This document shows, one piece after another, positions 20,409-62,166 of a stretch of DNA of 64,000 nucleotides. How positions within the stretch are numbered: position 1 is the first letter of the stretch; each line of letters opens with the position of its first letter. A program made the translations under genes and the position numbers. The stretch is from an uncultured Candidatus Saccharibacteria bacterium (GTDB lineage: Bacteria > Patescibacteriota > Saccharimonadia > Saccharimonadales > JAGQNJ01), in contig CAZEED010000001.1 of NCBI GenBank assembly GCA_964510945.1, forward strand, positions 98,774-162,773, given 5' to 3'. The notes beneath the pieces were generated by a model. That model saw nothing but the letters and a program-made list of their open reading frames with translations. It was not told the DNA's origin and did not search any database.

Positions 20409-20431
20409 CACTCTTGACACGAGAGTGCCAA
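20405..20431 (+). promoter_or_regulatory. CIRCE-like operator upstream of clpP
   Basis: CTAGCACTC-N9-GAGTGCCAA (16/18 to consensus); spacer again begins TTGACA (20414-20419). Confidence 0.65.
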
Positions 20432-20470
20432 TTAATGTATTCTATTTGTACAATAAAAGGAGAGAAAATA

Positions 20471-21070
20471 ATGTCCACGAAAGCATCATCAGTATTAATC
20501 CCGACAGTTATTGAATCAGATGGTAGAGTTGAACGGGCTTATGATATATATTCGCGTTTACTCAAAGATCGAATTATATTTTTAGGCACAGACGTTAACG
20601 AGCACACTGCTAATTTAATTGTTGCTCAATTGCTGTTTCTTGAGTCTGAAGACCCAAAGAAAGATATTAAGCTATATATCAATAGTCCAGGTGGTAGTGT
20701 TTATGACGCTCTGGCAATTTATGACACTATGCAGTTTGTAAAAAACGACATAGAGACGGTTGGAATCGGTATCCAAGCTAGTGCAGCGGCATTTTTATTA
20801 AGCTCTGGAACTAAAGGTAAGCGGTTTTTGCTAAAAAACGCCACGGCAATGATCCATCAGCCTTCAGCAGGTACTCGTGGCAAGGTTACTGATATGGAGA
20901 TTGACCTTAAAGAAGGTATAAGAATTAAGCATAAATTAAACGAAATTATGGCCAAAAATACCGGTAAACCTATCAAGCAAGTCGAAAAAGACATGGACCG
21001 AGATTATTGGATGACATCTGATGAAGCAGTAAAATACGGCCTAGCCGACAAAGTCATCACCAACCGCTAA
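20471..21070 (+). CDS. clpP: ATP-dependent Clp protease proteolytic subunit ClpP
   Basis: ORF 20414-21070; start moved to ATG 20471 behind AAAGGAGAG. Catalytic Ser context [37 protein letters not shown]. Confidence 0.93.
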
Positions 21071-21082
21071 AATACCCACTTT

Positions 21083-21682
21083 ATGAGTACATTGCAAAAT
21101 CGATCTGAAAAATATTTAGTATCAGTTGCCGAAGCGACTCAATGGATTGTTGAAATGGGTTTACCGGAAGAACATATACCCCAATACAATTCTTTAAATA
21201 GATTGTATTGGGGTGGACATTTTGGTCAGGCAGTAATAGTTCTCGCTAACCAAGAGCCAGTAAATCGCAGTATGGATCTAGGTCTAATCTATGCCGCAGT
21301 AAGTGCTCGTAACTCTTGCAGCTATTTGGGGACACCAATTAAATCTCGACAAGATCAATTCGCTAAATCGTATAGTAAATTCGGTAAAGCATGGGCAGCT
21401 GCAGATAATAGGTTCCAGAAGGGATTAGAGCCCAGTATGATGGGTGCGTTAGCATTTGTGTTCGCTCCATCAAAGAGCGAATTAAGTTCTCCAATACCTG
21501 GTGGTGTACTTATCGCGGCACATCCCTCAAATTCTGAATATTTGCCGGATTTCTGCGGATTGTATGGGTGGGATACTAATAGATATGCGCCTTTTGAGGA
21601 TGAAGATCATAAAGTCGGCGCAGCAGAAGACCATTACCCTAATAGACTCGGATTCCTATTACCTGAAGTTCAGCCAAACTAG
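21083..21682 (+). CDS. Hypothetical protein (cargo between clpP and the clpP 3' relic)
   Basis: 199-aa ORF; Trp/Gly-rich, no recognised family. Confidence 0.45.
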   Translation: MSTLQNRSEKYLVSVAEATQWIVEMGLPEEHIPQYNSLNRLYWGGHFGQAVIVLANQEPVNRSMDLGLIYAAVSARNSCSYLGTPIKSRQDQFAKSYSKFGKAWAAADNRFQKGLEPSMMGALAFVFAPSKSELSSPIPGGVLIAAHPSNSEYLPDFCGLYGWDTNRYAPFEDEDHKVGAAEDHYPNRLGFLLPEVQPN

Positions 21683-21702
21683 TCTTGGATCAATAAATCT
21701 AT

Positions 21703-21786
21703 GAAGACACGGATAGGGATTACTGGATGACTTCGGACGAAGCAGTAAAATACGGTCTAGCCGACAAAGTCATCACAAACCGTTAG
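21703..21786 (+). pseudogene. Relic second copy of the clpP 3' end (last 27 codons plus stop)
   Basis: Aligns with 20988-21070 (13 mismatches in 83 nt by my count). Encodes [27 protein letters not shown] versus [27 protein letters not shown]. An in-frame TAA lies immediately upstream and there is no start. Confidence 0.8.
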
Positions 21787-33241: not shown

Positions 33242-34048
33242 CTATTTATTTATATTCGTTCCGTCTCCGAATAATTTACCAGAATTAAAATCAGCGCGCA
33301 TCCCCGTATAATCGCCAGTAGGTAACTGTATACTCCTAACCCTTATTGCAGCAATATCTATAGGATCTCCCATGACCGCTACATACATTCTCGCTTTTAC
33401 TTGTCTATTGACTGGGGTGCCATAGTCATCAGTGTCATATATGTACTCGTTAAAGCCGTAGCAACCTATTCTACGTGCAGTCTTATTACTTTCTTGTCGA
33501 TGGTCATAACTACTATTACTAGTTGTATACCATGATCTTGTTCCTTCTCTGTATAAACGAATGCTAACATGCGTATTCCAACTTTTTGCTTTCCAGCAAA
33601 GCTGTACTGCCATCGGACGATTACGAGTGTTTTCGGGCTTTGGAATGATAAAAGACTTTGATATATAGGTCATTCTTGGCGTATATAGACTAGTTCTAGA
33701 TCTCCAACCATTTATTTTACGCCCTTTAGAATTAGTGGATACTTTGATCTTGTGGCCAACAGACCTCCAATTTACTTGCGGAATACTAGTATCATACTGA
33801 TCTTCATTATTATTTTCTGCTGCTGCGTCGTCGTAGTTGAGTACTTTAATAGGTTTTTTCTCTACTATATCCCCAGCCGGATATGTTTTGCTGTAACCCT
33901 TCGATTGCGCGTCTGAATTTCTGATGTTGAATAAATCATTTTTGTATGCGAATACCCCTAAAGCTAACACTAAACCAATCAATAGCGACATAACTAATAT
34001 TGGTTGAAATCTACGATTTGTAGTTTTAGTTTTATTATTTGACTTCAT
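33242..34048 (-). CDS. Membrane-anchored two-Cys extracytoplasmic protein, paralog 1 (unrecognised family)
   Basis: 268 aa; basic N-tail plus TM (ILVMSLLIGLVLALGVFAY). Shares DLFNIRNSDAQSK.YSKTYPAG, RPMAVQLCWKA, GCYGF, IAAIRV with the two downstream paralogs. Confidence 0.6.
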   Translation of the reverse strand: MKSNNKTKTTNRRFQPILVMSLLIGLVLALGVFAYKNDLFNIRNSDAQSKGYSKTYPAGDIVEKKPIKVLNYDDAAAENNNEDQYDTSIPQVNWRSVGHKIKVSTNSKGRKINGWRSRTSLYTPRMTYISKSFIIPKPENTRNRPMAVQLCWKAKSWNTHVSIRLYREGTRSWYTTSNSSYDHRQESNKTARRIGCYGFNEYIYDTDDYGTPVNRQVKARMYVAVMGDPIDIAAIRVRSIQLPTGDYTGMRADFNSGKLFGDGTNINK

Positions 34049-34080
34049 ATGTTTAGTCTCATTTCAATTATTTAATATAA

Positions 34081-34881
34081 TTATCTTGTGATGTCCGTTT
34101 CGAATTGTCTCAGGTAATATCCATTACTGTCGTGTTCTTGTGGTTTTGTTGGTTCAAAGATTTTAATAGATGCCAGTTCAATGCCACCTTCAGGTACTTT
34201 AATGAAGAGTTTTGCTTTTATGGATTTTTTTATTCTTACCGCGTATTGTCCTCGATGTATTGGCTCACTCTGCGGATGTGATCTAGGTACGACAGATTTA
34301 TAGCCAACATCATAAAAACCCCAGCAAGCAATTTCGCGATACCGATTAGGATCGCTTTCATATCGATGGGTGAAATTTATATGATATGCTCCATCCTTGG
34401 TCCCCCACACTTTATTGATATCTCTACTCAAACGTAGTTTTATGGTTGTATTCTTTTCTAGAGCTCGCCAGCAAACATACACAGCCATTGGACGTTTTGA
34501 TGTAGGAATGGTAAACCATTTACTGAAGTAGACCCATCCTTCGTTATCTAGAGTGTGTTTTTCATCGGCGTGATTCATCCTCCAACCATCAATCATAGGG
34601 CCACCTGGTTTAGCGGGCATACGAATATTCCCGCCTTGAGATTTAACCGATACTAACTTACCTCTGTAATACTTGAATGGTGTGGGTTTGTAATTAACTA
34701 TTTTTCCCGCAGCATAGGTTTTATTATATCGTTTAGAATCCGCCGACGAATCTTTTAGATTCAGCAAATCCATACTAAAAATAACAAGTCCAATTACGAA
34801 TATTAATATAATTGAAAAAGTTATAATTTTTGATTTATTTGATAATTTAAGATCCTTATTTTTCTTTTTTTTGTTTGCCAT
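34081..34881 (-). CDS. Membrane-anchored two-Cys extracytoplasmic protein, paralog 2
   Basis: 266 aa; MANKKKKNKDLKLS tail, TM, NIRMPAKPGGPMIDGWR, RPMAVYVCWRA, IACWGFYD, LASIKIF; SD AAGGA before the ATG. Confidence 0.65.
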   Translation of the reverse strand: MANKKKKNKDLKLSNKSKIITFSIILIFVIGLVIFSMDLLNLKDSSADSKRYNKTYAAGKIVNYKPTPFKYYRGKLVSVKSQGGNIRMPAKPGGPMIDGWRMNHADEKHTLDNEGWVYFSKWFTIPTSKRPMAVYVCWRALEKNTTIKLRLSRDINKVWGTKDGAYHINFTHRYESDPNRYREIACWGFYDVGYKSVVPRSHPQSEPIHRGQYAVRIKKSIKAKLFIKVPEGGIELASIKIFEPTKPQEHDSNGYYLRQFETDITR

Positions 34882-34912
34882 ATTTGTCCTTAGCTACATT
34901 TATTAGTTATCT

Positions 34913-35869
34913 TTAATTGGTGATGTCAGATTCAAACTGTCTATCGTAATAATTTGCACCGAGTTTAGATCTTTCAGGCGGTTGTGTTGGGTGAAAAACT
35001 TTTATTGAAGCAATTTCTACTTGGCCACGAACCTTTATATTAATTCTAGCCTTAATGGATTTGGATTTATTCATTTTTTTCATGTATTGCCCTGGATATA
35101 TTGGCTCGTTTTGCGGATGTGATCTAGGCACGACACGTTCATAGGCGATATCGTAAAAACCCCAACATTTTATTTTTTGCCACTCATCGTCACCATGTTC
35201 ATAACGATGTATATAGTTCATTATAGGCGCGCCATTTTTGTCTGACCATAATTCTCGTCTATTCTTGTTACTGAGCGTAGGACCTGCGAATAGAAGTTTT
35301 AATGATGTTTCTTTGCCGGACAATGATCTCCAGCAGACATATAAAGCTAGCGGTTTATCACTCTTGTCTTTTGGGATATTTATTTCTTTTGAAAAATAAG
35401 ACCAGTCAGGTAAATATGTAGTAAGTCTAGGGTTTACAGCTTTTTTATTGGGTTTTAACTTTTTAAAAAGTTTATCGTAGGTTGATGAGTTAACTAATGG
35501 CGATCGCCATCCCTTAATCATAGGACCTCCTGGTTTGGCAGGCATTCTTATGTTCTTTCCTAAAGATTTCATCATTACAAAATCATCGTCGCCGTATATT
35601 CCGCTATCTTTACGAACTTTTGTTTTGCCGTAGTTAACGATTTCGCCGGCTGGGTAAGTTCTATTGTAATTCTTAGAATCTGCAGATGAGTCTCTTAGAT
35701 TCAGCAAATCCATACTATAAATTAATAATGCAAGTACAATTACTAATAAAATTGAAAAAGTTATAATTTTTGTTTTATTTGATAATTTAAGATTCTTATT
35801 TTTCTTTTTTTGTTTGGCATTTTCTCTCCTATACTTAAGCATTATACATAACACACTAATTGATTCCAA
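34913..35869 (-). CDS. Membrane-anchored two-Cys extracytoplasmic protein, paralog 3 (conserved ATG at 35820 is out of frame because of an A7 tract)
   Basis: ORF open to 35869. The homolog of the paralog-2 start (ATG 35820 behind AGGAGAG) is in the +1 frame. Motifs NIRMPAKPGGPMIKGWR, KPLALYVCWRS, IKCWGFYD, IASIKVF. Confidence 0.55.
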   Translation of the reverse strand: MESISVLCIMLKYRRENAKQKKKNKNLKLSNKTKIITFSILLVIVLALLIYSMDLLNLRDSSADSKNYNRTYPAGEIVNYGKTKVRKDSGIYGDDDFVMMKSLGKNIRMPAKPGGPMIKGWRSPLVNSSTYDKLFKKLKPNKKAVNPRLTTYLPDWSYFSKEINIPKDKSDKPLALYVCWRSLSGKETSLKLLFAGPTLSNKNRRELWSDKNGAPIMNYIHRYEHGDDEWQKIKCWGFYDIAYERVVPRSHPQNEPIYPGQYMKKMNKSKSIKARINIKVRGQVEIASIKVFHPTQPPERSKLGANYYDRQFESDITN

Positions 35870-37798: not shown

Positions 37799-37975
37799 AT
37801 ACTTTTGTGCCGGCAAAAGTATGGCAAAACCTCGGGCTATCCGTTTGTCTTTACATATCTTCTTGTCAATAATCACAACAGCCTGCGGAACTCATCCGCC
37901 TGCTGGCGGACTCAAACAGTCCTCGGCATTCTAGTTGTGATTTTGACGAAGTTAATCAGGACAAGCCGGAGGCCC
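37799..37975 (+). repeat. Structured foldback element, copy A (5' hairpin ATACTTTTG/CAAAAGTAT plus long imperfect stem with variable apical hairpin)
   Basis: Alignable with 53015-53206 (+) and 53277-53467 (-). Conserved blocks ACAACAG(C/T)CTGCG(G/A)AAC and CA(A/G)ACAGTCCTCG(G/C)C; helices maintained by paired substitutions. Confidence 0.65.
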
Positions 37976-38013: not shown

Positions 38014-38277
38014 ATGGCAAAAAAACAAAAACGTATAAGAGAAACAGACGATGCATATTTCTTAAAACTAGTATTATTCATGATCTTGGGATCAATGTGG
38101 TTAAAAGTCAGTGATGGTCAATCTTGGCAAATTCCGTTACCCATAGGACTAGTTTTCGGAATACTACTGGCGAGACATGACCATTTTAGGATAGATCGTA
38201 AAATAGAATATGCTGTGCTACTAATTGCAGCGTTTGTGGGTTTTTGGGCGCCAATAGGGATTTATATTAATCTGTAA
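38014..38277 (+). CDS. Small hydrophobic protein (about 3 TM) inserted between rpsJ and rplC
   Basis: 87-aa ORF; TACAAT (38002-38007) lies 6 nt before the ATG, no SD; no family recognised. Confidence 0.45.
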   Translation: MAKKQKRIRETDDAYFLKLVLFMILGSMWLKVSDGQSWQIPLPIGLVFGILLARHDHFRIDRKIEYAVLLIAAFVGFWAPIGIYINL

Positions 38278-52573: not shown

Positions 52574-52974
52574 TGGCTATAAAAAACGCATATTTCTATG
52601 GTTTAGGACGAAGAAAAAGTGCCTCAGCACGAGTCAGGATTTCGGGCGGTAGCGGAAAATTCATTATCAATGATCACACAGCTGAAGATTATTTCGCTAA
52701 TAGTAAAAATTTGCTAAATGAACTAACAAAACCATTTACTGCGGTTGATCTAGTTAATAAGTTTGATGTTAGCGTTAAAGTTATTGGTGGAGGACACAGT
52801 GGACAAGCTGATGCCATTATCCTAGGTATTTCAAAAGCACTTGCAGTTATGAACGAAGATCTTAGAAGCACATTGCGTCGTGCAGACCTACTCGGTCGCG
52901 ATCCAAGAGAGAAAGAACGTAAGAAGTTCGGACTCAAGGGCGCTCGTAAACAAAGACAGTTCACAAAACGATAA
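52573..52974 (+). CDS. rpsI: 30S ribosomal protein S9
   Basis: GGGHSGQADAIILGISKAL...DPREKERKKFGLKGARKQRQFTKR. Confidence 0.96.
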   Translation: MAIKNAYFYGLGRRKSASARVRISGGSGKFIINDHTAEDYFANSKNLLNELTKPFTAVDLVNKFDVSVKVIGGGHSGQADAIILGISKALAVMNEDLRSTLRRADLLGRDPREKERKKFGLKGARKQRQFTKR

Positions 52975-53014
52975 TTTTCAAATTTTTGAGTAAAATAACA
53001 TTTTCGCAGTTTCA

Positions 53015-53206
53015 ATACTTTTGACCGCCAAAAGTATGACAAAAGCTCGGGCTTAACGTTTTTTCTTGACTAACTCACTAGTCAAGACAAACAACAGTCT
53101 GCGGAACTCCCCCGCACCTATTGCTTAGACAAAAGGTGCGGGGTCAGACAGTCCTCGCCTGATAGTTGTTTGTTTGACCTGAGTCATCAGGAAAAAGCCG
53201 ATGCCC
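53015..53206 (+). repeat. Structured foldback element, copy B
   Basis: ATACTTTTG-ACCGC-CAAAAGTAT hairpin; ACAACAGTCTGCGGAAC...CAGACAGTCCTCGCC; apical hairpin CCCCGCACCT/AGGTGCGGGG; aligns with copy A. Confidence 0.65.
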
Positions 53207-53276
53207 AACACAAAAAACAACCCCGCAACGTTAGTCTGGTCGTTGGCCAGATAAACGATGAGTATTACATATTGTT

Positions 53277-53467
53277 GGCATCCGGCTTGTCCTGAATAAC
53301 TTCGTTAAAGTAACAACAAAAAAGGCGAGGACTGTTTGAAGTTAGTAGTATGCCTGAGTGGCATATTACTAACAAGTTTCGCAGTCTGTTGTTATCTTTA
53401 ACTAGAAGTTATATAAAGACAAACGAAAAGCCAAGAGTTTTGTATTACTTTGGCGATACAAAGTAAT
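53277..53467 (-). repeat. Structured foldback element, copy C (inverted relative to B)
   Basis: The reverse complement aligns with copy A (CGTTTGTCTTTATATAACTTC..., ...GACGAAGTTATTCAGGACAAGCCGGATGCC); apical hairpin GTTAGTAATATGCC/GGCATACTACTAAC. Confidence 0.65.
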
Positions 53468-53513
53468 AGTTTTTGAATTATATTTACAAAATTTCTGACA
53501 TGATTGATAATAC

Positions 53514-53542
53514 TTGACAAATTATATATGAAGCTGTATTGT
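53514..53542 (+). promoter_or_regulatory. Candidate promoter TTGACA-17 nt-TATTGT for the G+C-rich operon leader
   Basis: TTGACA 53514-53519; TATTGT 53537-53542. Confidence 0.4.
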
Positions 53543-53656
53543 CTTATGGTTATGTTTCAAAACATTATAAACAACACAACTTATTGGTTTACCTCCAAAT
53601 ATTCATGGCGGCAAACTTCGTATTGTCTATAAAATAACAAACTATCAAGAAATATT

Positions 53657-53679
53657 AACCGCCACCAAGGCGGTTTTTT
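53657..53679 (+). terminator. Intrinsic terminator 20 nt upstream of the first ORF of the G+C-rich operon (attenuator candidate)
   Basis: AACCGCC-ACCAA-GGCGGTT plus T-run. Upstream TGGCGG (53606-53611) can pair with CCGCCA of the left arm. Confidence 0.65.
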
Positions 53680-53699
53680 AATAGTAAAGGAGAATAATC

Positions 53700-53960
53700 A
53701 TGATAAGACCAGAGCATAATCCAGAGAGAGTAACGGCAGGTCTACCGGACCAGATAGAATCAATCCCGAGTAGATTGCTAATTGCTCTAGATCAAGGAGT
53801 AATTAAAGAATCAGATTTAGTACCAAATATTGCAGCGACTATAAGCAGTAATCATAGGCCCGAAGTTGACCCACCATTAAATATTCATGAACAAGTAGAA
53901 CGAACCAGACACATAAATCAATTAGCAGCTAGCTGCGTAGAACAATTTTCAAAACAATAA
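53700..53960 (+). CDS. Hypothetical protein (first ORF of the G+C-rich operon)
   Basis: 86-aa ORF behind AAAGGAG; no motif recognised. Confidence 0.45.
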   Translation: MIRPEHNPERVTAGLPDQIESIPSRLLIALDQGVIKESDLVPNIAATISSNHRPEVDPPLNIHEQVERTRHINQLAASCVEQFSKQ

Positions 53961-54025
53961 GATTTAAGGAGAAAATATCATGCAAACTATAACAACAGAA
54001 CAATTACATACAGCAACTGAAGCAC

Positions 54026-56200
54026 TTGAACGACGGGGGTTGGTTTGGCTCGCCTGAAATTGCAGCCATACGCTTAAGAGGATATCCGTACGAGCAAGTT
54101 ATCGACGGAGAACCTCACGACAGTACAGATACTTTAAATGGCTTTGCACGTAACGAGAGCTATGAAAACAATCTTGCCCTAAAGCTAGCTGAGCACGAAC
54201 CAGACCTAGAACCACTGCGAGAACTCGGATTTCATGGACTAGATGCCAAGGTGAAAAGCCCTGGTGCCCTAACCTATGAAGAGGCTTTTAGCCTAGCGAC
54301 CTTCGTATGCCTAACAAGCAACAGAGAGCTACACAAGGCTTTTGAGCCTGAGCTAGCAGGTATTGGTGAGCCGGAAACTTTGCGTCTTCAGGCGGTTTCA
54401 TTGCTTCAAGGCATGTCAACTCGTGAGAGCCTGATCGGTTTTGAACCACAGGAAATTGCTGGAATGGTAGCCGCTACTTTAGAGCTAGATACCGTGGCTC
54501 GAGTAGCATCCCCTAGCGAAACCCCGACATTCATTGTTGGCGGTATGGGCGGTGATAGGGGTATACCCTCTCACGGGGAGCAGTCAAAACTATTTAGTAC
54601 CTCTACGCTTGCTTCAATAGCATTGGCTGGACTCGTGGCTGTTCATAAGCATCACTCTTACCCCAATACATCCAAAGCAGCTGGCCAATCAGCTATAGAA
54701 GCTTTGGGCGCAAGATCCGATATGGAGGATGCCGCAACTATGGAACTGGCACTAGGCATATCTGGAATGCTTATGACGAGTTGTCATAGCGTAAGAACCC
54801 TGCACACCATATCCCATATTCTTAAGGGAGAAACAGTCAATCACGCTATCGGGCCTTTGGCGGTTCCGCATGCCAGCAGCGATAAAGTTAACGCTCTAGT
54901 TGGCGTGAACCATAATGTTCACCCGACAACAATCATTGAAACCTTGCGTGTACTACAGACTAAAGGTATCCAAGACTACGGTAATAGCGTAGCGTTTTGT
55001 GGAGTTACTGCTCCGGTTGAAGAGCTCCCTGCTGAGATCTTAGACCCTAAAGCTTACTATGCTGCTCCTGATCTAAAGGAGTTAATCATGCTGGATGAAG
55101 TAGCGCCACCACCATTTGTAACGATGGCATCATTCTTAGTTGATGGCCAATCAAGTGGACCGTATTTAATCGAACCAATTGACTTCATGGAAGCCGAAGA
55201 GGCAGAAGCTATGTCATCAGATGGATTGCTGATTCCAAATACCCTGGAAGACATCATGACAGCCAATAATGCGGTCATCCAGGCCCAGGATCATATGAAG
55301 ACAAAGTACGTGGCGATGACCGTTGCTTTGGCCAACTTCGCGAGAGATTATGCGCATCTGCCTGACGCACTTGATGTGGATGCTCGTACTGTGAACAGAG
55401 CCTATCTTCGAGCATGTTTTAGAGCTGCTGTAGAAAATATGAGCGATGGGTCTATGGAGAACACAACAAGACTCTACGGCGAAGCAACGCAGAAAGACAT
55501 GCTTCCAAACATAGATGTGGTGGTCTTGGATATCGATAACACCTTGATTCGCCCTAAAAACCAAGACTTCTACGAACAATACTCAGAAGCTGTAAACTTG
55601 GCCATTGCTAACTATCTTGGCGTTAACCTAGAAGAAGCTACAAAAGTTGCGGACTTTTTCAGGGAAAACTTTGGTGGTGGCGAACAAGCCTTGTTTTCAG
55701 GAGCTGTTGGGGATTACTTTCCACAATACGGGAATCCTAGCCCTGACTTCGAGCTGCTTTACGATGCTATGTCCCAGATCAAGATTGATGGTCAATTTGG
55801 TGATGATGGCTTGAGTGCCAAGCTAGTTAAATTACTACGAGCCAAAGGCAAGAAAGTTGTAGCTATGACCGATTCGCCTGAAAGTCTATCGAGGCAGACA
55901 CTAAAAGCATGCGGCTTCGACCCAGATTCTGATTTTGACCTGTACGTTCCCTACACCAAAGAATCCGGTCCCCCGAAAATCGTGCAGGCCGATGAGGCTT
56001 TCAAGAGCATCGCTGACTATTTCGAGGTAGATCCTAATAGAGTGCTGAGTGTGGGTGATAGTCTAACAAGAGATATTGTACCAGCAGAAAGGTCTGGTAT
56101 GAAAACGTGCCTTGTCTCTCAGTACGATGTGCCTGGATACGAAGGCCTACAAGTAACTAATCTTGCGGATACATTCCGCACATATAGGAGAAGTTTATGA
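54026..56200 (+). CDS. Fusion protein: glycosyltransferase family 3 (TrpD/nucleoside phosphorylase-like) N-domain plus HAD-superfamily phosphatase C-domain; 5' end apparently frameshifted
   Basis: GGMGGDRG...LFSTSTLASIALAGLVAVHKHHSYPNTSKAAGQSAIEALGA resembles the TrpD GTGGDG...KHGNR...GSAD.LEALG pattern. HAD motifs VVLDIDNTL, MTDSP, VGDSLTRD. Strong SD plus ATG at 53980 is in another frame. Confidence 0.6.
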   Translation: MNDGGWFGSPEIAAIRLRGYPYEQVIDGEPHDSTDTLNGFARNESYENNLALKLAEHEPDLEPLRELGFHGLDAKVKSPGALTYEEAFSLATFVCLTSNRELHKAFEPELAGIGEPETLRLQAVSLLQGMSTRESLIGFEPQEIAGMVAATLELDTVARVASPSETPTFIVGGMGGDRGIPSHGEQSKLFSTSTLASIALAGLVAVHKHHSYPNTSKAAGQSAIEALGARSDMEDAATMELALGISGMLMTSCHSVRTLHTISHILKGETVNHAIGPLAVPHASSDKVNALVGVNHNVHPTTIIETLRVLQTKGIQDYGNSVAFCGVTAPVEELPAEILDPKAYYAAPDLKELIMLDEVAPPPFVTMASFLVDGQSSGPYLIEPIDFMEAEEAEAMSSDGLLIPNTLEDIMTANNAVIQAQDHMKTKYVAMTVALANFARDYAHLPDALDVDARTVNRAYLRACFRAAVENMSDGSMENTTRLYGEATQKDMLPNIDVVVLDIDNTLIRPKNQDFYEQYSEAVNLAIANYLGVNLEEATKVADFFRENFGGGEQALFSGAVGDYFPQYGNPSPDFELLYDAMSQIKIDGQFGDDGLSAKLVKLLRAKGKKVVAMTDSPESLSRQTLKACGFDPDSDFDLYVPYTKESGPPKIVQADEAFKSIADYFEVDPNRVLSVGDSLTRDIVPAERSGMKTCLVSQYDVPGYEGLQVTNLADTFRTYRRSL

Positions 56201-57060
56201 GTAACCCAGAAATTATCTATGAAGTTGGCGAAGGTAACCCTATCGTCGTCATCAACACAGGAACACATGGCAACGAATATCAACCAGTAGAAGCAGCTAA
56301 TCAGTTTGCGGAAAATTTTGACGGATCCGAGTTAGTAACGGGGACAGTAAGACTTATTGTCTCAAACCCCCCTGCCTTGGAGCAGAATAAAAGATTCTTA
56401 GACGAAGACTTAAATAGAGCTTTTCCTGGTGATCCATCTTCCCCAAGTCGAGAGGCAAGATTAGCCTCTCAAGTACTTGGGTTAGTTGATGATGCGGATT
56501 TTGTAGTTGATCTGCACACTGCTCCAGACGGACCACCTTTTACAATTTTGGGCTCAAGGGATAGATCAAGACTTGATCTTGCTGAGCTTGCGCCGGTTCA
56601 GGATATTGTTCTATTTGAAGCTACTGAACCATGCGCAATGGTTGATTTTACTAAGTGTGGTATAGGCATTGAGATAGGAGCTCACACGGACGAACAGTCA
56701 ACGCAAGAAGGGGTTTCAATTATCGAAGCATACCTCGAGCGATTAGGCCTAACTCCTTCGACCCTAACAGGTGGCCGTAAATACGCTTACTCAAGACGAG
56801 GCTTAGGCGATCTGTTCCCACATCAATACCATGAAGTATTTTCGCGCTTAACCAGAGCAGACATACCCGAAGATGCTATAGCACAACTCAAGAATCTTGA
56901 GCCAATAGATAGTGCAACACTGGGTTTGAACCTAGAGGAGCCCGTTGTTCATCCTGTGCTATGTGGCGACAAAGATTACTCTCCCGTCTTCTGCTACTTA
57001 GCTAAACCGGTGGATAGAGAAAGTCTGGGAGGAAGGAAACGATACAATGCTTATTTTTGA
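56197..57060 (+). CDS. Succinylglutamate desuccinylase/aspartoacylase (AstE/AspA) family zinc deacylase
   Basis: INTGTHGNEYQP, EDLNRAFPG, VVDLHTAP; ATGA overlap with the upstream gene. Confidence 0.65.
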   Translation: MSNPEIIYEVGEGNPIVVINTGTHGNEYQPVEAANQFAENFDGSELVTGTVRLIVSNPPALEQNKRFLDEDLNRAFPGDPSSPSREARLASQVLGLVDDADFVVDLHTAPDGPPFTILGSRDRSRLDLAELAPVQDIVLFEATEPCAMVDFTKCGIGIEIGAHTDEQSTQEGVSIIEAYLERLGLTPSTLTGGRKYAYSRRGLGDLFPHQYHEVFSRLTRADIPEDAIAQLKNLEPIDSATLGLNLEEPVVHPVLCGDKDYSPVFCYLAKPVDRESLGGRKRYNAYF

Positions 57061-57958
57061 TACTGACGCTGGGCATGACGATGTCTTAGCGATGCTGATG
57101 TTACTCAAGTCCAAACAGTTCGATGTGTTGGGCATAACTACGGTTGCCGGTAATTCAACGCTTGAAAATGCTACCCGTAATACCGCGTTTGCGCTTGATC
57201 TGTTAGGAAGACGCGATATTCCTATTTTTTCAGGCGCAGCTAAACCTCTCAAGAGACAGCTCGTCCAAGCGGTTGTTCACGGACATAGTGGTCTTGATGG
57301 TGCCGATACATCTAGAACTAGCTATACACTCACCAATAATGCTGTCAATAAGCTTATCGAGCTAGTTCGAGCTCACCCTTACGAAGTAACAATCCTGACA
57401 CTGGGGCCACTAACCAATATTGCAAAAGCATTCGAGGCTGACCCAGATCTTCCGACGCTTGTTAAGGGACTGGTCATTATGGGCGGTGTTGTTGATGGCG
57501 TTGGTAACAAAAACCGTGTCGCCGAGTTCAATATATTCGTTGACCCAGAAGCTGCCCATATCGTGTTTAGTGCAAATGTGAAAAAAACGCTCATTCCGTT
57601 TGATATATGTAGAGACATTGTTTTCCCGCTGAAAGACTTCGACAAGCTCAAAGGAACAAGCCTGCATAAGCCTGTTAAGAAAATGATGAAACCATTCATA
57701 TCTGGACTTAAGGCCGAAGAGGGAATCAACGGGGCGCTATTGCCTGATCCTATAGCAGCCTACTACCTATTAAACCCAAGAGTCTACACTATAAAACCAA
57801 TGGATATAGTCGTCGAAACATCTGGTAAGCATACTTCAGGAATGACAGTCATTGAAAAAAGAAAGAACAAACCACAAAAATATAATATAGAAGTAGCAAC
57901 AAGAATTATCGAAAATAAATTTAAACAACATTTCTTTAAGCTACTGAGGAAAGCCTAG
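57047..57958 (+). CDS. Inosine/uridine-preferring nucleoside hydrolase family protein
   Basis: N-terminal fingerprint LIFDTDAGHDDVLAMLM (DxDxxxDD); 14-nt overlap with the upstream gene. Confidence 0.85.
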   Translation: MLIFDTDAGHDDVLAMLMLLKSKQFDVLGITTVAGNSTLENATRNTAFALDLLGRRDIPIFSGAAKPLKRQLVQAVVHGHSGLDGADTSRTSYTLTNNAVNKLIELVRAHPYEVTILTLGPLTNIAKAFEADPDLPTLVKGLVIMGGVVDGVGNKNRVAEFNIFVDPEAAHIVFSANVKKTLIPFDICRDIVFPLKDFDKLKGTSLHKPVKKMMKPFISGLKAEEGINGALLPDPIAAYYLLNPRVYTIKPMDIVVETSGKHTSGMTVIEKRKNKPQKYNIEVATRIIENKFKQHFFKLLRKA

Positions 57959-58002
57959 AAGTTAATAACTAGGACGTAAATAATATATAATAGGAGAAAG
58001 TT

Positions 58003-59055
58003 ATGAGCAAACCACTTCAACAAGTTCAGGACAAGCCAGTAATTTTGACAGGCCTTCGGGCAAATAACGACTTGCACCTCGGTAGCTACCTAGGGGCGAT
58101 GTTACCTATGGCGCAGATGCAAAAGAAATATGGAGAAACCTATCAGTTGAATATGTTTATCCCTGACTTGCACAGTTTTACTACGCCTATCGACCACAGT
58201 AAGCTATACGAGCAATCAATACATAATCTAAAGTTATTTACAGCATCAGGACTAGATATAACTCATCCTGATACATATATATACCGTCAGAGTCGAGTAT
58301 CCGCCCATAGCGAATTAACCGTAATTTTGAACTGTTTTACCTATATGGGCGAGCTTCAGAGGATGACTCAGTTTAAAGAAAAGAGTGCGAAATCAGATTC
58401 CGTTTCTGTTGGACTTTTTGACTATCCGGTTCTTATGGCAGCGGATATTTTGCTTTACGGTGCAAAATACGTTCCGGTAGGGGCCGACCAGACGCAGCAC
58501 GTAGAACTAGCTCGAGATATTGCAATTCGCATGAACAACAAGTTCAACCGAGAATTATTTGTACTGCCAGAGGCCGAGAAAGATCAAATTGCCTTTGCGA
58601 CTCAAGACGAAAGATTACGCGTCAGGGATTTGCTTGATCCTTCTAAAAAAATGAGCAAATCTGACGAAACAGGTAAAGGAGTGATTTTCTTAGGTGATAG
58701 CCCTGAGACAGGTGCAAAAAAGATTATGAGCGCCACGACTGATAGTCTAGGTGAGATTAACTATGATTTTAATAAGCAACCAGGAATTAGTAATCTACTA
58801 GATATCTTAAGTGCACTTACCGATACACCAATAAAAGACACTGTCGCAAAATACAAAGGCCAAACACAATACGGCCCGCTAAAACAAGATGTTGCAGAAG
58901 CTGTAAAAAACTTCTTAACAAATTTCCAAACAAAATTAACGCAAGTTGATGAAAAAGCACTAATGGATAAGCTAGAAGAGTCAGAAAAAGCCATGAACAT
59001 AGTCGCAAACCAAACCCTACACAAAGTCCAAGAAGCCGTCGGTCTCCGTATTTAG
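58003..59055 (+). CDS. trpS: Tryptophan--tRNA ligase
   Basis: 350 aa class I aaRS; GLRANNDLHLGSYLGA (HIGH-type), KMSKS. Confidence 0.88.
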   Translation: MSKPLQQVQDKPVILTGLRANNDLHLGSYLGAMLPMAQMQKKYGETYQLNMFIPDLHSFTTPIDHSKLYEQSIHNLKLFTASGLDITHPDTYIYRQSRVSAHSELTVILNCFTYMGELQRMTQFKEKSAKSDSVSVGLFDYPVLMAADILLYGAKYVPVGADQTQHVELARDIAIRMNNKFNRELFVLPEAEKDQIAFATQDERLRVRDLLDPSKKMSKSDETGKGVIFLGDSPETGAKKIMSATTDSLGEINYDFNKQPGISNLLDILSALTDTPIKDTVAKYKGQTQYGPLKQDVAEAVKNFLTNFQTKLTQVDEKALMDKLEESEKAMNIVANQTLHKVQEAVGLRI

Positions 59056-61918: not shown

Positions 61919-62004
61919 GCAGGGTTAGTGAAGCGGTCAAACACGGCAGACTGTAAATCTGCTGGCTTATGCCTTCGTAGGTTCGAATCCTACACCCTGC
62001 ACCA
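61919..62004 (+). tRNA. tRNA-Tyr (anticodon GTA), long variable arm, CCA encoded
   Basis: GCAGGGT/ACCCTGC acceptor, anticodon loop CTGTAAA, variable arm, T-loop TTCGAAT. Confidence 0.9.
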
Positions 62005-62036: not shown

Positions 62037-62143
62037 GTTGGTCCTGATTAATAAATTCGAACCGACAGGCGAGAACAGTCGGGGACTGTTTGAGTTATAA
62101 ATATTTATAGCGAGATGCTTTAGCTCTCGAGCGGATAAATCAA

Positions 62144-62166
62144 TTCGAGTCCTACACCCTGCACCA
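62144..62166 (+). repeat. Direct repeat of the tRNA-Tyr 3' end (TTCGAGTCCTACACCCTGCACCA)
   Basis: 22/23 identical to 61982-62004. Confidence 0.85.

Follow-up and report, generated by a model that had tools for sequence, protein, structure and literature searches.

The DNA that we analyzed (the window) is a stretch of 64 kb from an uncultured Candidatus Saccharibacteria bacterium. Directly behind rpsI, it carries two copies, B and C, of a foldback module, followed by a promoter-like site, a leader, and an operon that starts at about position 53700. A third copy, A, lies behind rpsJ. The features are listed below with their positions in the window.

37800-37974, plus strand: copy A, solitary arm; covariance model 169 bits; fold z = -5.9
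52970-52975, plus strand: GATAAT, left copy of a 6-nt direct repeat, overlapping the rpsI stop codon; candidate target-site duplication or slippage site
52976-53505, no strand assigned: whole composite element (doublet), 530 nt, from the alignment of filled and empty sites; ends good to ~8 nt
52976-53015, plus strand: AT-rich outer flank of arm B, 70% identical to the reverse complement of the right flank (53467-53505)
53016-53205, plus strand: arm B, foldback module; covariance model 165 bits, E ~1e-39; fold z = -8.5
53016-53036, plus strand: P1 hairpin of arm B
53065-53069 and 53187-53191, plus strand: long rod helix CUUGA/UCAGG of arm B, holding the conserved U.G wobble
53091-53108, plus strand: 5' core of arm B, ACAACAGUCUGCGGAACU
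53144-53159, plus strand: 3' core of arm B, UCAGACAGUCCUCGCC
53206-53276, no strand assigned: spacer, 71 nt, with a central hairpin TCTGG-TCGTTGG-CCAGA at 53235-53251
53277-53466, minus strand: arm C, foldback module; covariance model 149 bits, E ~1e-35; fold z = -11.2
53324-53339, minus strand: 3' core of arm C
53375-53392, minus strand: 5' core of arm C
53446-53465, minus strand: P1 of arm C
53467-53505, minus strand: AT-rich outer flank of arm C, weakly inverted relative to the left flank
53506-53511, plus strand: GATAAT, right copy of the flanking direct repeat
53514-53699, plus strand: host promoter-like site and conserved leader, outside the element (TTGACA-17-TATTGT; 27-aa ORF; terminator at 53657-53675)

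B and C are tail-to-tail copies of one foldback module of 175 to 190 nt, with 71 nt between them. An earlier note on this DNA had described them as an inverted pair with A as a third copy, and a covariance model (R1, built from 13 copies and used with cmsearch on the window and its relatives) bears out the coordinates and orientations. With filters off, the model found no further significant module in the window beyond these three. Pairwise identity is 76% for A-B, 76% for A-C, and 70.5% for B-C, and the mean column identity of a three-way alignment (A, B, and the reverse complement of C) is 75%. Two blocks of this alignment, ACAACAGNCTGCGRAACT and TCARACAGTCCTCGSC, are fully conserved, and the sequence between and around them varies complementarily. 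Each copy consists of a short 5' hairpin and one long rod, with a stability far above that of shuffled sequences; in arm B, a variable terminal hairpin separates the 5' and 3' cores. Arm C belongs to a different subfamily from B, its closest counterpart among the fetched loci being L006. The spacing given by the earlier note was also accurate: B starts 41 nt past the end of the rpsI ORF (52974; about 40 nt in the note), the 5' end of C lies 47 nt ahead of the TTGACA at 53514-53519 (about 45 nt), and A and B, as direct repeats, are separated by 15.2 kb (about 15 kb). The G+C-rich operon that it placed downstream shows a rise that is present but modest, with 45-48% G+C for the genes at 54-57 kb versus 36-42% in the surroundings.

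A candidate fourth copy near tRNA-Tyr (62078-62093) was rejected, as it scored 10 bits in the model (E = 1.2). The last 23 nt of this tRNA gene (61982-62004) are repeated with one mismatch 139 nt downstream (62144-62166), which resembles an att-type duplication. The DNA between the repeats contains the terminator hairpin of the tRNA gene as well as a palindrome, GAACAGTCGGGGACTGTT, similar to the 3' core of the element (10 bits, no match in the model). Other repeats in the window involve coding sequences. Between fusA and tuf, on the minus strand (33242-35869), are three ORFs of 268, 266, and 318 aa, two of which were tested and gave no Pfam hit; since repeats of ~80% identity link 34221-34890 with 35062-35830, the first two are paralogues inserted in the str operon region. 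A 91-nt direct repeat with 84% identity (20979-21069 and 21695-21785) links the 3' ends of adjacent ORFs, and ORFs 20414-21070 and 21083-21682 are, from their sequences, probably tandem paralogues.

We then looked into the rpsI site in 23 contigs encoding an RpsI protein identical to that of the window. B and C were present with identical scores in four contigs (L086, L087, L089, and L090), and two others (L091 and L092) end within B; we counted six identical-RpsI assemblies as carrying the pair. In L088, L093, and L094, there is no module, and the rpsI stop runs directly into the same TTGACA promoter-like site and leader. L085 represents a third haplotype, with other genes behind rpsI. Comparing filled and empty sites revealed a clean gap of ~530 nt (window 52976-53505), so that the composite inverted repeat of the earlier note stands as an inverted pair, but not at the size of about 450 nt given there. 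We infer that the presence/absence at the rpsI site arose by insertion rather than by deletion, but it could equally reflect a slippage deletion between the two GATAAT copies. The GATAAT repeat is not significant alone: with a null frequency of 0.51 for repeats this long, chance alone would supply one about every second time, and a target-site duplication is therefore unproven. Among the flanks of the 11 other doublets tested, 4/11 had no repeat of at least 5 nt and the rest had none longer than expected by chance.

The leader (53530-53680, 150 nt from promoter to terminator) is 99% identical in L088, which lacks B and C, and L094, which also lacks them, has the same promoter and a 99% identical leader. 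Identity between the window and L088 drops abruptly to ~57% in the first ORF after the leader; judging from this alignment, the divergence boundary of the variable island is at ~53680-53700, that is, ~175-195 nt to the right of the element. Since the break in homology lies to the right of the conserved host leader, the element is an event separate from the island. The earlier note had the pair exactly at a composition and synteny boundary, which is contradicted by this position and by the two relatives that keep promoter and leader without B and C. It had also assumed that the downstream DNA was acquired. The genes at 53700-57958 are indeed variable cargo, absent from the L085 and L088 haplotypes, but B and C are not the edge of this cargo. 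The note would have given up its boundary-marker reading if relatives had the same operon without the elements, or if the repeats were scattered through the genome; the comparison across relatives shows the same operon start without the elements and dispersed repeats, and the reading fails.

The interval from rpsI to a class I tRNA synthetase gene (52975-58002) is a hot spot with three gene contents among the identical-RpsI genomes: HAD-fusion, AstE-AspA, and nucleoside hydrolase genes in the window; in L085, a 243-aa ORF, PDT, and a 241-aa ORF; and in L088, small ORFs together with a racemase fragment. The leader itself contains a 27-aa aromatic-rich ORF (MVMFQNIINNTTYWFTSKYSWRQTSYCL, ATG at 53546) and a UGGCGG motif (53606-53611) able to base-pair with the 5' side of the leader terminator (53657-53675). 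From these features, the leader (53514-53699) is a candidate ribosome-mediated attenuator; in Rfam, it gave only a weak match to Trp_leader (E = 0.69).

Copy A lies 10 nt past the rpsJ stop and has neither a partner arm nor an outer flank. Three contigs with identical EF-Tu (L096, L097, and L098) carry a module at the same position behind rpsJ, and in two of them the core is damaged, by two substitutions at otherwise invariant positions in L096 and by an insertion of ~65 nt in L098. Copy A differs from its L096 orthologue by 14%, compared to 12% for rpsJ and 11% for the next gene; its identity of 86%, versus 88-96% for the flanks, corresponds to divergence at about the rate of the flanks. In L095 (from the same MAG as L004), a 133-aa ORF without a Pfam hit is found in place of A (L095 4249-4650). 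According to these alignments, copy A is a solo arm that was inherited vertically, has little constraint on it, and is decaying in relatives, and the bracketing of the rplC-rpsI block by A and B, to which the earlier note had drawn attention, looks incidental. An 87-aa ORF with no significant Pfam hit lies between rpsJ and rplC (38014-38277), and L095 to L098 each have an ORF of 87-89 aa at the matching position, the likeness being one of place and length.

We next analyzed the modules as a family. A module is composed of one or more short 5' hairpins (CTTT...AAAG type), an A-rich linker, and a rod of ~60 bp. The stems of the rod vary freely and two asymmetric core strands, ACAACAGNCUGCGGAACU and UCARACAGUCCUCGSC, are invariant, for a total of ~35 invariant core bases across the family. 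Most members have one or two extra short hairpins upstream of P1 (NTTCTTT-loop-AAAGAAN, then CAAA). When 53 distinct modules were aligned with the model as a guide, standard pairs made up 90.3% of the pair cells, a share that fell to 35-47% in controls where partners were slid by 1-3 columns. Both sides changed in 40 of 52 pairs, and none of 500 shuffles reached any of the observed pairing measures. The structure is under selection at the family level, with the caveat that compensatory changes in a palindrome may come in part from hairpin-templated repair rather than from selection. Of the 53 modules, 42 retain the U.G wobble of helix CUUGA/UCAGG, and this wobble and the asymmetric core together define the strand of each module. 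Outside this wobble, G.U and U.G mismatches (56) are no commoner than A.C and C.A mismatches (70), and therefore single copies are not purified as RNAs on one strand. We rejected a coding role for the modules, since conservation is confined to the loops, the stems covary, and no ORF is conserved.

The P1 loop is complementary to the linker immediately 5' of the closing helix, over at least 4 bp in 47% of the modules, compared to 14% when loops and linkers were crossed between modules. The helices use about 10 sequences, including UGCUA/UAGCA, UGUCG/CGACA, GUCAG/CUGAC, GGCGG/CCGCC, and UUCC/GGAA. This complementarity makes it likely that the P1 loop and the linker form a pseudoknot; it is weak or absent in copy C of the window.

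Scanning species-representative genomes with a two-block pattern derived from the conserved core returned 32 loci. Of these, 23 were in MAGs of Candidatus Saccharibacteria, Saccharimonadales, or Patescibacteria (at least 13 assemblies), and none of the 9 from other phyla passed the covariance model. A scan of metagenomes gave 52 more loci. Altogether, 69 distinct modules match the model, only in Saccharibacteria/Patescibacteria contigs and in at least 13 species-level MAGs; no match was found on viral contigs or in plasmid and phage collections. Rfam 15 returned nothing for B and C, even at E values up to 10, and only four tRNAs passed its gathering thresholds over the whole window. We found no published description of the repeat element; the sole TM7 RNA motif found in the literature, the lysM-TM7 RNA motif, is separate and cis-regulatory (PMC5737381). 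Among these hits, the element family is Saccharibacteria specific; it is hairpin rich, dispersed, and so far unannotated.

At least 8 loci are found in one Rifle groundwater genome (RIFCSPHIGHO2_12_FULL_41_12), where composites of ~520 nt are 72-90% identical to each other and their flanks are at background identity. Since copies within one genome differ by 10-28%, there is no sign of a recent burst. The genes upstream of the copies are unrelated (response regulator, aminotransferase, PfkB, T2SSF, AsnRS/AspRS, PIF1, TsaD, UvrB, GroEL, L25, and others), and no neighboring protein family recurs apart from duplicate assemblies. The L004 doublet is in a close relative, a MAG whose EF-Tu is identical to that of the window; it matches B and part of its spacer at 81% identity and adjoins a DUF5661 gene. 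The mobility or dispersal suggested by the earlier note is supported by such doublets in an unrelated context, by the clean presence/absence among identical-RpsI genomes, and by the multiple copies in many Saccharibacteria.

Evaluation of adjacent modules (gap below 500 nt) revealed that the second followed the first in the order plus then minus, convergent and tail to tail, in 16/16 distinct cases; since every adjacent pair is convergent, we consider the doublet as the canonical unit. The spacers range from 7 to 476 nt (median ~64 nt; 62-71 nt in 9/16; mostly 62-67 nt in doublets other than B-C), and most contain a central hairpin with a sequence that differs between elements. In the Rifle genome, the unit reads outer flank, arm I, spacer hairpin, inverted arm II, and inverted outer flank. 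The L002 derivative retains arm I, the spacer, and the inverted terminal hairpins only, and at L004, one arm is short and internally deleted; such deletion derivatives with retained ends are typical of non-autonomous transposons. Partner arms frequently have a second core type, CGGGACUCCUUCCAGUCGGG...GUCCUCARAA, on the shared outer scaffold (L020, 7612-7786; L055, 1080-1258; L058, 2885-3057; L018, ~1565-1795), which makes many doublets heterotypic, as if their left and right ends were distinct.

In two cases, convergent arms enclose other DNA: a 114-aa ORF, by eye a small cargo, at L003 (4920-5780), and, at L050 (4932-7112), ~2 kb with two ORFs that lack Pfam hits and a third for an ArsR-type HTH protein. 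These arm pairs hint that arms are able to bracket cargo. An autonomous element between the distant L050 arms was rejected, the three ORFs having no transposase domain.

The copies are intergenic, usually 10-90 nt from a gene end. An apparent sense-orientation bias (~20/28 with a co-oriented upstream gene) proved to be an artefact of doublets and convergent junctions; the informative class, solitary modules flanked by co-directional genes, splits evenly into 7 sense and 7 antisense cases, and copies lie between convergent genes in 7 cases versus 2 for divergent genes, all these context statistics resting on crude ORF calls. We rejected the idea that the modules have promoters of their own, as no -10-like or other promoter motif occurs at a fixed distance upstream of P1 across 50 distinct flanks, and a consensus promoter scan gave nothing for A, B, or C. 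None of the three is followed by an intrinsic terminator with a U tract; the only terminator-like hits near modules fall on a sub-hairpin within B and on the leader terminator (53657-53675). The insulator or terminator role envisaged in the earlier note finds no backing in these data or in the 7:7 orientation. We found no transposase, integrase, or reverse transcriptase gene beside any copy (~0.6 Mb of loci) or in the window, no autonomous relative or cognate IS with the same ends in the same DNA, and no RAYT (Y1 HUH) gene within the 8-kb loci around the copies.

We then compared the element with known systems. A REPIN is an inverted pair of REPs, sequences of 20-40 nt with a GTAG/CGTC tag, mobilized by a RAYT transposase. 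Like REPINs and BIMEs, the element has an inverted doublet with a short spacer as replicating unit and singlets that look like decaying relics, and it is intergenic, dispersed, and non-coding, with no clear target-site duplication and with hairpin structure outweighing sequence. Instead of a tagged palindrome of 20-40 nt, however, each of its arms spans 175-190 nt and contains an internal rod, an asymmetric core, and a pseudoknot, and the hairpin feet lack the GTAG/CGTC tag. Unlike in REPINs, the arms are often of two core types, each arm self-folds rather than mainly pairing with its partner, and no RAYT-like gene is seen in the surrounding 8-kb loci. The likeness to MITEs (Correia/NEMIS, ERIC, and RUP) lies in a small, non-coding, imperfect palindrome of ~0.5 kb (below 600 bp), with terminal inverted repeats in 16/16 doublets, that is multi-copy, dispersed, gene adjacent, and strain polymorphic and has internally deleted variants retaining the ends. 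In contrast to Correia/NEMIS, ERIC, and RUP, the element is ~3-5 times longer and is a nested palindrome whose inverted arms each contain hairpins; its stems are hypervariable and its loops invariant, the reverse of terminal inverted repeats recognized by proteins; no TA or other duplication is shown, and no cognate IS is known or was found in the ~0.6 Mb of loci and the window; and the family is conserved over many species-level lineages of one phylum-level group.

An RNA-like module of ~180 nt at the end of a mobile unit, starting with a 5' stem-loop, then stems interrupted by internal loops, and having a pseudoknot, also recalls the bridge RNA of IS110 and the omega RNA of IS200/IS605. There, the programmable loops or guides vary, whereas here the loops are invariant and the stems vary, and there is no adjacent recombinase, TnpB, or IscB gene; Rfam families, including HEARO, did not match the modules. 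Integron attC sites are imperfect palindromes of 55-140 nt with R''/R' boxes at the stem base, in one-orientation arrays after cassette ORFs near intI. We rejected this identity, as the modules are longer, form convergent doublets, occur in both orientations with no integrase nearby, and follow essential genes (rpsJ, rpsI, and groEL).

We propose, with a probability of about 0.6, that B and C are the two arms of one non-coding, non-autonomous, MITE/REPIN-like mobile element specific to Saccharibacteria. The proposal builds on direct observations of family membership, conserved pairing, fixed doublet architecture, presence/absence, dispersal, and the lack of copy-level purifying selection. The propagating unit would be the convergent doublet, made of an arm, a spacer of ~65 nt with a small hairpin, and an inverted arm, with the 5' hairpins at the outer ends in the manner of terminal inverted repeats. 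An enzyme encoded elsewhere would recognize a folded single-stranded form of the ends and core and would move or copy the doublet into AT-rich intergenic DNA, where most of the persisting insertions would lie just behind genes. Internally deleted copies and solo arms, A among them, would be immobile, decaying relics. The element would be selfish, with the doublet as its competent form and with a propagation that hinges on nucleic-acid structure. Pairing and core are kept between subfamilies, and inserted copies drift, accumulating mismatches without strand bias. Against this proposal stand the lack of a mobility enzyme beside the copies or in the window and of an autonomous relative, the lack of a consistent target-site duplication across doublets, the 10-28% divergence of copies within a genome with no recent burst, and a combination of asymmetric core, U.G wobble, and pseudoknot that is more typical of functional RNAs than of classical MITEs.

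These same RNA-like traits (strand-specific fold, invariant asymmetric core, U.G wobble, and likely pseudoknot) would fit a doublet that is a pair of convergently transcribed small-RNA genes, possibly on mobile DNA, with promoters in the outer flanks and the central hairpin, present in most spacers, as a shared bidirectional terminator. A TTGCGA-17 nt-TTTAAT sequence ~5 nt before P1 in a flank of the RIFCSP genome and a TATAAT 9 nt upstream of P1 of C could serve as promoters. We nevertheless find this reading doubtful: neither the 50 upstream flanks nor the scan of A, B, and C supplied a promoter, the spacer hairpins have no U tracts, G.U mismatches are not in excess over A.C, the core is mutated or interrupted in orthologues of A, and Rfam gave no match at E values up to 10. 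The modules could instead act in host transcripts as cis elements (3'-end protectors, RNase III sites, or insulators between operons), co-opted like REP, BIME, ERIC, or Correia sequences. Their position close behind genes agrees with this, copy A is almost certainly transcribed because it is inside the S10 operon, and rods of ~60 bp would, by analogy with Correia and ERIC, be RNase III substrates. Yet orientation relative to co-directional genes is random, no terminator signature follows the modules, genomes with identical neighboring genes differ in whether they carry the element, and orthologous copies decay; the location after genes is also expected from purifying selection against promoter insertions. 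We regard such a host function as unlikely.

It is highly improbable that the pair is a recombination or integration substrate that delimits the G+C-richer operon and helped to acquire it. B and C do co-occur with the HAD, AstE, and nucleoside hydrolase genes in the sampled assemblies, at a hot spot of three haplotypes between rpsI and the tRNA-synt_1b gene, but those assemblies, whose elements are identical, may be one population. The haplotypes part only past a promoter and leader that are 99% identical and lie to the right of the element, no second copy exists at the far end of the island (~57958-58003), and the family is dispersed in unrelated contexts. A further idea, which we consider improbable, is that the arms encode a new class of structured RNA used by the element itself. 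This RNA could be a ribozyme that processes itself, or it could serve an RNA-dependent mobility enzyme of Saccharibacteria as a scaffold or guide. If so, the core, the U.G wobble, and the pseudoknot would be an active or protein-binding site.

The invariance of the core over many species-level lineages implies that a partner acting in trans, so far unnamed, is conserved as well; it would be a DNA enzyme that recognizes structure or a system based on RNA. Saccharibacteria have genomes of ~1 Mb with very few repeats; in such genomes, an element of 0.5 kb with at least 8 copies per genome is a sizeable part of the non-coding DNA. Covariance model R1 offers a direct route to annotate the doublet copies, which can be used as strain-level insertion markers and can be mistaken for island boundaries, as happened at the rpsI site. 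Copies are found in or directly behind essential operons, such as A in the S10 operon and B and C behind rpsI, and long hairpins at such positions can alter mRNA processing.
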